Source: Escherichia phage teqhad
Sequence record: NC_054933.1
DNA length: 64,000 nucleotides
Reading direction: 5' to 3' (one strand)
Below are positions 1-5,712 of the stretch, piece by piece. Numbering within the stretch: the stretch's first letter is position 1; every line of letters starts with the position of its first letter. Position numbers and translations under genes: made by a program. The notes beneath the pieces were generated by a model, which saw nothing but the letters and a program-made list of their open reading frames with translations, did not search any database and was not told the origin of the DNA.

Positions 1-1338
1 TTTAGGAGCTGTTCCTGCGATATATTCATGAATTGGATAAACTTTAAACTGCCCACGAATAGTCTCAGGACTAATGTTAACCTGACGAATAATGCTCGGA
101 TACAAAGACGTCAAGTCAAAACTCATAATATATCGACGAGCAATTGGTTTAGGTTCAAATACAAATGCACCCGGAAAACTCTGTTTAACGTGCGAACCTT
201 GTTGAGGAATAACCTTGTGTTCACCTTTCAATGAGTTAAAAATAATAGCATCCCAGGTTTTAATAGGACTCATTACACCAGAAAAAGGCATTTTAGCGTA
301 ATAAGACATACTTAAAACTAGATCGATAAACCCGCGAATTTTATCAATTGCTTGAACTGATTCTACGTCAATGATGTTATAACTAATGTATCGTTGATGA
401 TTAGTCTCACGAAGTTTATTAATAGGACCGTCGTATGGTAATTTACCTTTTTTGGTTTCATGTTGAGCAACTGATTCCAAAGAGAATGACGGCAAATTAG
501 TAAATGCGAATTTCTTATACAAATCTAAATAATCAAGAATAGATACGCCATCAATAGAATAAATTTCTTTGCTACCGTACATATTTTGGATAAGTTTAGA
601 TTTTACTCGACCGATTGGAGAGAAGCGTTTCATACTACGTTCACCGAGAACCATTTTAACGCGATTCATGATATACGGAACGTCAAATCCCTCAATATTC
701 CAACCAGTAAAAATAGCAGGTCGTTTCTGTTCCCAGAGATTGATATATTCCATGAGCATATCACGCTCATTATCGAATGGCATATAAATTACTCGGTCAA
801 GAATTTCTTGAGGAACTTCATCACCACCTTCACAGTCAAGCTTAGCAGCTAACTTTGCATCCCATTTTGATACTGAACCATACATTGAATTCAAAAGGTC
901 GAAAACATAAAAACGATCATCAATTGAATCGTAATGAGTGATAGCATCAATTTCATATTCAGCTTTCATTGGGTCAGGAAATTTATCACCAGTAACCTCA
1001 ATGTCACAGTTAGCTACACGAACAAATTTTCGGTCATAAACAATTTCTGAACCGTATGTATCACTGATATAAGCGAGTTTAAAATCGTTCATACCGAGAG
1101 CTTCGAGACCGATGTCTTCCATTCGTTTCATCCAATCTCGAGCATCTTTCATTGATGGAAATTTTTGAGGAGCGCAGTTTTTACCATAGATGTCTTTGTA
1201 CTTTGACTCTTCCTTACAATGCCTAAACATAGTTGGAAGATATTCTACTTCACGAGTACGTTCCTTTCCATTTTCATCAATATAACGTTCAACAATATTA
1301 TTTCCGACTGTTTCAATAGAGATATAAAATTCTTTCAT
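1..1338 (-). CDS. 43: DNA polymerase (family B), N-terminal 446 codons; partial, continues beyond window start
   Basis: Minus-strand translation from ATG at 1338-1336 reads MKEFYISIETVGNNIVERYIDENGKERT..., recognised as T4-type gp43 N-terminus; in frame to position 1. Confidence 0.95.
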   Translation of the reverse strand, partial: MKEFYISIETVGNNIVERYIDENGKERTREVEYLPTMFRHCKEESKYKDIYGKNCAPQKFPSMKDARDWMKRMEDIGLEALGMNDFKLAYISDTYGSEIVYDRKFVRVANCDIEVTGDKFPDPMKAEYEIDAITHYDSIDDRFYVFDLLNSMYGSVSKWDAKLAAKLDCEGGDEVPQEILDRVIYMPFDNERDMLMEYINLWEQKRPAIFTGWNIEGFDVPYIMNRVKMVLGERSMKRFSPIGRVKSKLIQNMYGSKEIYSIDGVSILDYLDLYKKFAFTNLPSFSLESVAQHETKKGKLPYDGPINKLRETNHQRYISYNIIDVESVQAIDKIRGFIDLVLSMSYYAKMPFSGVMSPIKTWDAIIFNSLKGEHKVIPQQGSHVKQSFPGAFVFEPKPIARRYIMSFDLTSLYPSIIRQVNISPETIRGQFKVYPIHEYIAGTAPK

Positions 1339-1385
1339 AGATATTCCTTAGTTTATAGCCCGAGTTATTAGGCTCTTGATATATT
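1339..1385 (-). promoter_or_regulatory. gene 43 translational operator (hairpin plus Shine-Dalgarno)
   Basis: Minus-strand RNA reads GAGCC-UAAUAACUC-GGGCU hairpin followed by UAAGGAAUAUCU-AUG, as in the autogenous gp43 operator. Confidence 0.7.
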
Positions 1386-1396
1386 ATACTCCAAAT

Positions 1397-1415
1397 AAGG
1401 GGCCGAAGCCCCTTT
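1397..1415 (-). terminator. UUCG-tetraloop hairpin (terminator / RNA-stability element)
   Basis: Minus-strand RNA AAGGGGC-UUCG-GCCCCUU immediately after the stop of the upstream ORF. Confidence 0.6.
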
Positions 1416-1418
1416 GCT

Positions 1419-1655
1419 TTAAATTTCTATTGTACGACGCGATATAACGGACTTGCCATCTGTATTTGTGGTTTTGATAATCGCATGAAATGCGCGTTGG
1501 CGTGGGTAAACTAATCGTTGGAATTCTTTTTGGAATTCTATTTGTTTATCTTCCGGGAGGTCAAAAACCAGTTGGGTAGAAGACAGACCATATGTTTGTT
1601 TTAGATTTTCGAATATTAGAAAAGCTTCGGTAAACTGAATCTCTGATTGTGTCAT
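1419..1655 (-). CDS. hypothetical 78-aa protein between regA and gene 43 (track ORF extends to 1706 from a non-ATG start)
   Basis: ATG at 1655-1653 preceded by UAAGG that overlaps the regA stop; MTQSEIQFTEAF...; no recognisable motif. Confidence 0.5.
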   Translation of the reverse strand: MTQSEIQFTEAFLIFENLKQTYGLSSTQLVFDLPEDKQIEFQKEFQRLVYPRQRAFHAIIKTTNTDGKSVISRRTIEI

Positions 1656-1665
1656 ATAATTTACC

Positions 1666-2034
1666 TTAATTACCAATCGTATATTTAGGAACGAGTTTCC
1701 ATTCATGTTTTTGTTTAAAAGAAATAACTCGGAAGTTATTAGTTAAATCTTTCATAAAAGTTCTTTGTCCAGGAACGATTTCAATCAGTCCCCAATCTTC
1801 TAACAGCCATGCAATCGAATCACGACGAACTTCATCTTCTTCTGTCATTTCAACTTGACGGCCATCCATACGAAGCATTTCTTTAAAATGAACGATATAG
1901 TATAGTCCTTTTTTCTGAAGAATATGACAGGACTGATACAGAACTTTATCTTTATTATTAGCAATTCCCATACGAGTCAAAGTTTCTTTTACTTTCAGAA
2001 AATCTTCAGGTTTTTTAAGAGTAATTTCAATCAT
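1666..2034 (-). CDS. regA: RegA translational repressor
   Basis: 122 aa, MIEITLKKPEDFLKVKETLTRMGIANNKDK...; synteny 62-regA-43. Confidence 0.93.
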   Translation of the reverse strand: MIEITLKKPEDFLKVKETLTRMGIANNKDKVLYQSCHILQKKGLYYIVHFKEMLRMDGRQVEMTEEDEVRRDSIAWLLEDWGLIEIVPGQRTFMKDLTNNFRVISFKQKHEWKLVPKYTIGN

Positions 2035-4752: not shown

Positions 4753-4944
4753 TTAGTCATAATAATCAGTAACAGTCCAAGCTTCATTTCTATTGGACAT
4801 TATTTTTGTATATTCTGCTTTAAATGCATTCCTAAGCATAGATTCAGTAACTATATGCTCTTCATTAGAAAAATTATTTCTCAGAATATATCGTTTTATT
4901 TCAGGAAAAGTTAATAGATGCTGTCCGGTTGAATATTCTGCCAC
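4753..4944 (-). CDS. 45.2: small early protein 45.2-like
   Basis: 63 aa; synteny between rpbA and 46. Confidence 0.65.
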   Translation of the reverse strand: MAEYSTGQHLLTFPEIKRYILRNNFSNEEHIVTESMLRNAFKAEYTKIMSNRNEAWTVTDYYD

Positions 4945-4995: not shown

Positions 4996-5712
4996 ATGAA
5001 TTATAAACTAATTTATGAAAAGTTAATCTCTAATGCTAAATCTCGAAAACTTGATTGCTATACTGAATCTCATCACATTATACCACGCTGTTTAAATGGC
5101 AGCGATGATGCTTCAAACTTAGTAGAGTTAACACCAGAAGAGCACTATGTAGCTCATCAACTTTTAGTAAAAATTTATCCTTCTGAACCAAAATTAGTCT
5201 ATGCTGCTAACATGATGACAGTTTCCACGAAATACGCTAAACGCAACAATAAAACTTTCGGTTGGATTCGTCGTAAACTCTGGGAAATAGAAAAGAACAA
5301 AGAATTCTCCCAGGAGACACGAAAGAAAATGTCTGATGCAGTAGCTAATAAAGCAAGACTAACTTGTCCTCATTGCGGTAAGTCTGGATTAAGCGGGAAT
5401 ATGAATCGTTGGCATTTTGATAACTGCCCAAATCACCCTAATCCTAAAGTTAGACCACCAATGTCTAAAGAACACAGAAATAATATCTCAAACGGACTTA
5501 AAGCAATCGTTCTTGAAGAAACATCCTGCGAATTCTGCGGAATGATAGGCAAGAAATGCGTTATCGCAGCGCATAGAAATTTCTGCAAGAAAAATCCAAA
5601 TGGACGCAAGAAAACTGAAAAGACTGGTACTTGCGTCCATTGTGGTAAAGTTACCACTTTCGGAAATTTATCAAGATGGCATAATGATAACTGTAAATAT
5701 AAACCTAGCTAA
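4996..5712 (+). CDS. HNH homing endonuclease with C-terminal zinc-finger-like repeats
   Basis: 238 aa; HNH core HHIIPRCLNGSDDASNLVELTPEEHYVAH; repeated CxHCGK...RWHxDNC motifs; antisense to all flanking genes. Confidence 0.85.
   Translation: MNYKLIYEKLISNAKSRKLDCYTESHHIIPRCLNGSDDASNLVELTPEEHYVAHQLLVKIYPSEPKLVYAANMMTVSTKYAKRNNKTFGWIRRKLWEIEKNKEFSQETRKKMSDAVANKARLTCPHCGKSGLSGNMNRWHFDNCPNHPNPKVRPPMSKEHRNNISNGLKAIVLEETSCEFCGMIGKKCVIAAHRNFCKKNPNGRKKTEKTGTCVHCGKVTTFGNLSRWHNDNCKYKPS

Follow-up and report, generated by a model that had tools for sequence, protein, structure and literature searches.

Between regA, the gene of a translational repressor, and gene 43, the gene of DNA polymerase, Escherichia phage teqhad carries a small open reading frame (ORF) beside elements that control the translation of its neighbors. 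The locus raises the question of whether new DNA was inserted here, as the first-pass annotation had proposed, or whether the ORF belongs to the established gene stock of T4-like phages, and what its product might do. In this study, we analyzed the window, i.e., the whole stretch of 64,000 nucleotides from sequence record NC_054933.1, by comparing the junctions between regA and gene 43, by family and record searches, by estimates of selection, and by structure modeling. Judged by its sequence, the ORF is orf43.1, an already known variable gene of T4-like phages.

Layout of the locus

The genes regA, orf43.1, and gene 43 are all encoded on the minus strand at the left end of the window. The following features were assigned:

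2034..1666, minus strand: regA (translational repressor) coding sequence with stop codon TAA at 1668..1666; from the ORF list, matched records being annotated as translation repressor
1667..1664, minus strand: AAGG Shine-Dalgarno sequence (SD) of orf43.1, overlapping the regA stop and 8 nt before the ATG; read from the sequence
1655..1419, minus strand: orf43.1, RB51-type allele, 78 codons plus stop, ATG at 1655..1653 and TAA at 1421..1419; from translation, Pfam, and PHROG
1414..1397, minus strand: terminator-like hairpin AAGGGGC-UUCG-GCCCCUU of 7 bp with UUCG tetraloop, directly 3′ of the orf43.1 stop; from fold and scan
1388..1383, minus strand: TATAAT box, candidate −10 element for gene 43 transcription, downstream of the UUCG hairpin; from sequence conservation
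1374..1339, minus strand: gp43 translational operator, comprising the hairpin AGCCUAAUAACUCGGGCU (1374..1357) and a single-stranded stretch including the gene 43 SD
1349..1345, minus strand: SD of gene 43, part of the single-stranded stretch of the operator
1338..1, minus strand: 5′ part of gene 43 (DNA polymerase) with ATG at 1338..1336, leaving the window; from the annotation of matches

The regA gene of the window is 98.4% identical to that of T4 and 99.7% identical to that of RB51, and gene 43 is 97–99% identical to its counterparts in T4, RB32, and RB51. The ATG of orf43.1 lies 10 nt past the regA stop. The first-pass annotation had described a 78-aa ORF between regA and the gp43 operator, an SD overlapping the regA stop, and a UUCG hairpin following the stop of the ORF, and all three were found at the positions listed. 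Its end coordinate of 1706 is the ATG of a longer reading of 95 aa within regA and not the real start. This longer reading was rejected, as it starts inside regA and its extension is absent from the homologues except for over-extended gene calls such as P0010.

Comparison with the junctions of T4 and RB69

The gap between regA and gene 43 measures 78 bp in T4 (NC_000866) and 327 bp in the window, a difference of 249 bp. The distance of about 110 bp earlier given for T4 and the insertion of about 220 bp derived from it need to be replaced by these values. Alignment of the junctions showed that the 78 bp of T4 are wholly present 3′ of orf43.1 in the window, save two additional A residues, and that the extra 249 bp consist of the 10-nt spacer, the 237-nt ORF, and these two A's. 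The pairwise comparison thereby bore out that the ORF is extra relative to T4. In T4, the UUCG hairpin directly follows the regA stop, whereas in the window orf43.1 stands between the two. The hairpin, the TATAAT box, and the gp43 operator are otherwise found in both phages, the operator being identical base for base. The spacer of RB69 is likewise empty and measures 81 bp. Removal of exactly 223 bp, those lying between the two TAA codons, turns the RB32 junction into that of T4; TTAA stands at the end of both borders.

Another difference from T4 was observed farther along the window. An ORF of 238 aa (4996–5712, plus strand) is located on the opposite strand between 45.2 (4753..4944, minus strand) and gene 46, at a spot where T4 has no gene. 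Over 212 aa it is 99% identical to RB32ORF054w, annotated as 'homing endonuclease, similar to mobB'. It contains an internal repeat of a zinc-finger-like motif (C-x-x-C...RWH..NC), and in Pfam it gave a weak, sub-threshold match to HNH (E=0.0056).

Identity of the ORF

The 78-aa protein matched the Pfam family PF25760 (Phage_RB18_ORF43, 'Phage RB18 ORF43.1 protein') with 108.9 bits at a gathering cut-off of 27 (E=1.1e-31), the match spanning profile positions 3–69 of 69, and also matched PHROG 3826 (function unknown; E=8e-34). It is 97% identical to ORF050 of RB51, which carries the GenBank note 'similar to RB18 43.1'; the full annotation of this ORF in RB51 reads 'RB32ORF047c hypothetical protein; similar to RB18 43.1'. 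The RB32 version, with 73 aa, bears the same note of similarity to RB18 43.1. Compared with orf43.1 of RB18 and RB51, the gene of the window shares the position (regA – orf43.1 – hairpin – gene 43) and the HMM family, and differs in nothing of substance. The proposal of a novel insertion gives way at this point to a catalogued variable gene. The first description reportedly goes back to Miller and Jozwik in J Bacteriol in 1990, on 'conserved regA and variable orf43.1 genes in T4-like bacteriophages', and our full-text literature searches found no paper on orf43.1 or PF25760.

Two types of the gene have to be distinguished in Tequatrovirus. The commoner RB32/RB18-type allele encodes 73 aa and has its ATG 1 nt past the regA stop, whereas the RB51-type allele of the window encodes 78 aa and has its own SD and the 10-nt spacer.

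Distribution and synteny

A megablast search with the region matched 515 T4-like phage records, only 67 of them covering the ORF, and tblastn detected the orf43.1 family in 311 phage records, where these and the following record counts include duplicate RefSeq and GenBank entries. Three states of the locus together account for 501 of the 515 flank-sharing records: the empty T4-type junction (256 records, counted with a 72-nt probe across the T4 junction at an E-value limit that a contiguous match alone can pass), the RB32/RB18-type allele (178 records with at least 80% identity to P0008), and the less common RB51-type allele of the window (67 records with at least 90% identity). About half of the Tequatrovirus records carry orf43.1. 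As to the earlier expectation that T4 and its relatives would not have the ORF here, it holds for T4 and fails for the relatives.

The family is small. When 1.8 billion representatives were scanned all-against-all with HMMER, no more than about seven clusters at 50% identity proved genuine, and a profile search returned 32 homologue clusters at 90% identity, all 32 of them with PF25760. Two further hits, P0011 (1157 aa, E=2e-10) and P0015 (2317 aa, E=4e-5), are tandem-repeat proteins whose scores come from several short repeated segments; they were discarded as probable false positives inflated by these repeats.

Genomic contexts were opened for RB51, RB32, JS10, IME341, dhabil, RZ, TH15, KM16, CkP1, IME523, and one metagenomic contig. 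In all 11 of them orf43.1 lies directly 3′ of regA, and gene 43 comes next in the nine that are annotated; the records of TH15 and KM16 lack annotation, and the metagenomic contig stops just past orf43.1. The slot is occupied in five genera of the Tevenvirinae, namely Tequatro-, Dhaka-, Gapriver-, Moon-, and Karamvirus.

Coding status, selection, and decay

The family alignment showed that the reading frame is kept across these five genera at 38–58% amino acid identity to the protein of the window, so that the check for in-frame conservation suggested in the first-pass annotation came out in favor of a real gene. K19, L24, F31, and L33 are invariant, and Y22, D32, E35, Q38, Q42, P51, F56, G67, R73, and E77 are nearly so. 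For the unsaturated pairs, i.e., the window against JS10, IME341, dhabil, and RZ, Nei-Gojobori dN/dS values of 0.18–0.27 were obtained, and by this measure the frame is under purifying selection.

Some alleles are damaged. JB75 encodes 55 aa (1468–1635 of the JB75 sequence) and PhiZZ23 40 aa, REP1 and NBEco003 have in-frame deletions of 4 aa, and TadeuszReichstein (MZ501106) may carry a frameshift. These truncated, deleted, or possibly frameshifted alleles sit in otherwise intact Tequatroviruses. Such alleles suggest ongoing decay of a dispensable gene. Because of the 256 records with an empty junction, the 81-bp gap of RB69, and the decayed alleles, orf43.1 appears to be dispensable. Taking the evidence together, we regard orf43.1 as an accessory gene, known and dispensable, that T-even-type phages carry in one fixed place between regA and gene 43, and assign this reading a probability of roughly 85%.

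The selection estimates also bear on the idea that the ORF arose by chance in a non-coding spacer or is left over from a mobile element, for example a homing-endonuclease cassette. The shortness of the ORF, the AT-rich genome, the variable presence, and a mobB-like HNH gene 3.3 kb away could be taken to favor this idea, but it is very improbable given the conserved frame (this in itself refutes the idea), the dN/dS of about 0.2, the invariant residues, the confident fold model, and indel borders that are stop codons and lack terminal repeats. A nuclease domain was absent from the protein, PF25760 being its sole Pfam match and none being obtained in NCBIfam or PADLOC; a derivation from a homing endonuclease was rejected for this 78-aa protein with a helix-helix-hairpin fold.

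Allele mosaicism and origin

Compared with orf43.1 of RB32, the gene of the window has 56% nucleotide identity, a pS of 0.72 (synonymous sites saturated), and 43% amino acid identity, while the flanks of the same two phages are nearly the same (regA 99.2%, first 1.3 kb of gene 43 97% identical). The divergent segment extends between two stop codons, that of regA and that of the ORF. As read from the sequences, this is the pattern of a classical mosaic cassette between conserved flanks. In presence and absence, deeply diverged alleles, near-identical flanks, and the lack of an essential role, orf43.1 resembles other small, variably present early/middle ORFs of T-even phages that are exchanged as cassettes; it differs from them in holding a strictly fixed slot, tightly abutting regA in five genera.

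The window allele is nearer to the alleles of Dhaka- and Gaprivervirus (52–58% amino acid identity) than to the RB32-type found in Tequatrovirus itself (43%). At the 3′ end of the RB51-type allele, the final ~35 nt (window 1419–1455, minus strand) and the following AAAG-CAAAGGG junction are identical to Gaprivervirus RZ (~1700–1745), whereas the rest of the gene is only ~50–70% identical to that of RZ. The shared 3′ end may be a recombination joint left by exchange between genera. Because of the nearness to the Dhaka-/Gaprivervirus alleles and the RZ-matching 3′ end and junction, the window allele as a whole may have been imported by recombination.

For the origin of the size difference, a recent insertion or lateral gain of ~250 bp into a T4-like empty spacer in the lineage of the window was weighed. 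The short empty spacers of T4 and RB69 are compatible with such an event, as is the standing of the RB51-type as a minority allele (67 of ~500 records), and the affinity to Dhaka-/Gaprivervirus together with the exact match to RZ suggests import by recombination. An import of the window allele would, however, be an allele replacement and not a de novo insertion. The slot is filled in five genera, and its alleles have reached saturation at synonymous sites, which argues for an old family at this place, the T4 junction corresponds exactly to the RB32-type locus without the ORF between the two TAA codons, and the flanking regulatory elements are unchanged. A recent insertion is therefore considered unlikely, and it is more likely that the T4 lineage lost the gene or that recombination exchanged alleles than that a new insertion arose in one lineage. 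We infer that the three states of the locus would be swapped by homologous recombination in the conserved flanks, and that T4 and RB69 would have lost the gene; the absence of orf43.1 from both T4 and RB69 and the affinity of the window allele to those of Dhaka-/Gaprivervirus count against taking loss as the settled direction of the indel.

Expression context

In every other allele, a single base separates the start codon from the regA stop, as in TAA-T-ATG and TGA-T-ATG, or the two codons overlap, as in CkP1 (TAATG), and geometrically this corresponds to termination-reinitiation coupling. The window allele alone departs from this arrangement through its 10-nt spacer and a proper AAGG SD. Translation of orf43.1 would be coupled to that of regA, in the window allele via its own SD overlapping the regA stop. 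Expression of the gene is supported indirectly, by the SD and coupling geometry and by purifying selection. Since its translation would need ribosomes finishing regA, synthesis of Orf43.1 should follow the autogenous repression by RegA, i.e., it would track regA translation directly and RegA autorepression indirectly. The gene is located upstream of the UUCG hairpin and so on the regA side of a terminator- or stabilizer-like element, and it would be co-transcribed with 45-44-62-regA as the last cistron.

RegA sites are A+U-rich and unstructured with a 5′ A tract, and as a general rule they overlap or sit just 5′ of a start codon (PMC3014915). As this rule places RegA's own target at the regA start, the target should lie ~370 nt upstream of orf43.1 and not adjacent to it. 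The earlier description of the ORF as lying next to two autoregulatory elements is therefore right for the gp43 operator, which is close and identical to that of T4, and not for the RegA target. The start region of orf43.1, AAAUUAUAUGA, resembles the RegA site of gene 44, AAAUUAUGAUU (PMC3014915), in sharing AAAUUAU, but in this genome chance would be expected to produce an AU-rich match of 7 nt.

Hairpin, TATAAT box, and gp43 operator

The core of the UUCG hairpin is identical in the window, T4, and RB32. Its 3′ tail, UUAUUUGG, is an imperfect U tract, a terminator scanner flagged the site on the plus strand only, and other phage records annotate the hairpin as a terminator by prediction. From its geometry, this strong hairpin is a putative terminator. 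The stem reads GGGGC/GCCCC in Tequatrovirus, GGGAC/GUCCC in Dhaka- and Gaprivervirus, and GGGCC/GGCCC in Moonvirus, while the UUCG loop and the downstream TATAAT box do not change. The fourth stem pair covaries on both sides (G-C, A-U, and C-G, respectively), and this compensatory change suggests that the structure as such, in RNA or DNA, is under selection.

The TATAAT box is kept as (G)AGTATAAT in Tequatro-, Dhaka-, and Gaprivervirus, and a putative promoter role for gene 43 is ascribed to it. According to its published description, the gp43 operator consists of an 18-nt hairpin, which carries UAAC in its loop and lies ~40 nt upstream of the gene 43 AUG, and of adjoining sequence as far as the SD (PMC3014915). 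The operator of the window agrees with this description; it is identical to that of T4, and its predicted fold has a stem of 5 bp and a loop of 8 nt. In Dhaka- and Gaprivervirus, the hairpin and the TATAAT box are kept, but a different sequence (…AAAAGACAAUCACUCGUCUAUAAAGGAAA…) replaces the T4-type gp43 operator hairpin. Moonvirus KM16 has a T4-like gp43 operator hairpin, GAGACUAAUAACUCGGUCU.

Protein, structure, and possible role

The product of orf43.1 is a soluble 9-kDa protein with a pI of 4.6–6.6 in the family, near-neutral in the window allele and acidic in the relatives. An AlphaFold2 model based on a 25-sequence family alignment reached a pLDDT of 93.6 and a pTM of 0.80. The modeled fold comprises a helix (3–21), a conserved loop (22–34; YGLSxxQxxFDLxE), a second helix (35–49), and a beta-hairpin (55–63/69–77). 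A profile search of PDB sequences gave no relative of the protein, PADLOC gave no match, and NCBIfam gave a sub-threshold match alone (E=0.078). In BFVD, the structure matched only family members and a 72-aa protein of the T4-like Edwardsiella phage PEi26 with 26% identity.

The solubility and the pI range of the family disfavor a nucleic-acid-binding role. Orf43.1 would probably bind another protein through the invariant YGLSxxQxxFDLxE loop, and is likely to be a conditionally useful accessory factor of the early/middle phase and not a nucleic-acid-binding regulator. Our best guess is a small protein-binding accessory factor that is made alongside the replication proteins and benefits the phage in certain hosts only.

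A more specific idea is that Orf43.1 is a working part of replication or translation control, modulating the repression by RegA or gp43 or binding a sliding clamp via the Q-x-x-F-D-L loop. The gene always adjoins regA, is apparently coupled to it, and lies inside the cluster of clamp, clamp-loader, and polymerase genes; its start region shares AAAUUAU with the gene 44 RegA site, and the most conserved segment of the protein is Q(L/T)(V/I/L)FDL. We take this segment to resemble, loosely, the clamp-binding hexapeptides of bacteria. T4, RB69, and half of the Tequatroviruses, however, run the same circuits without orf43.1, the motif is in a well-ordered, high-confidence part of the model in which F31 and L33 may be core residues, and the shared heptamer is what chance would give. 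A part in this control is thus improbable. The variant in which a small adaptor, translationally slaved to RegA, binds a sliding clamp through the Q-x-x-F-D-L loop, or else RegA or gp43, is an equally long shot. Were it true, Orf43.1 would tune the regulatory circuit of the replication genes in phages that carry it, and the two diverged alleles would be matched to different partners or hosts.

Implications

With the accessory-gene reading, the correct label for the ORF is orf43.1 (PF25760) and not a new insertion, and the translational operators of gp43 and RegA are undisturbed by it. With a fixed slot that is either empty or filled by one of two ancient alleles, orf43.1 would offer a clean natural system for studying the role of a conditionally useful small phage protein.
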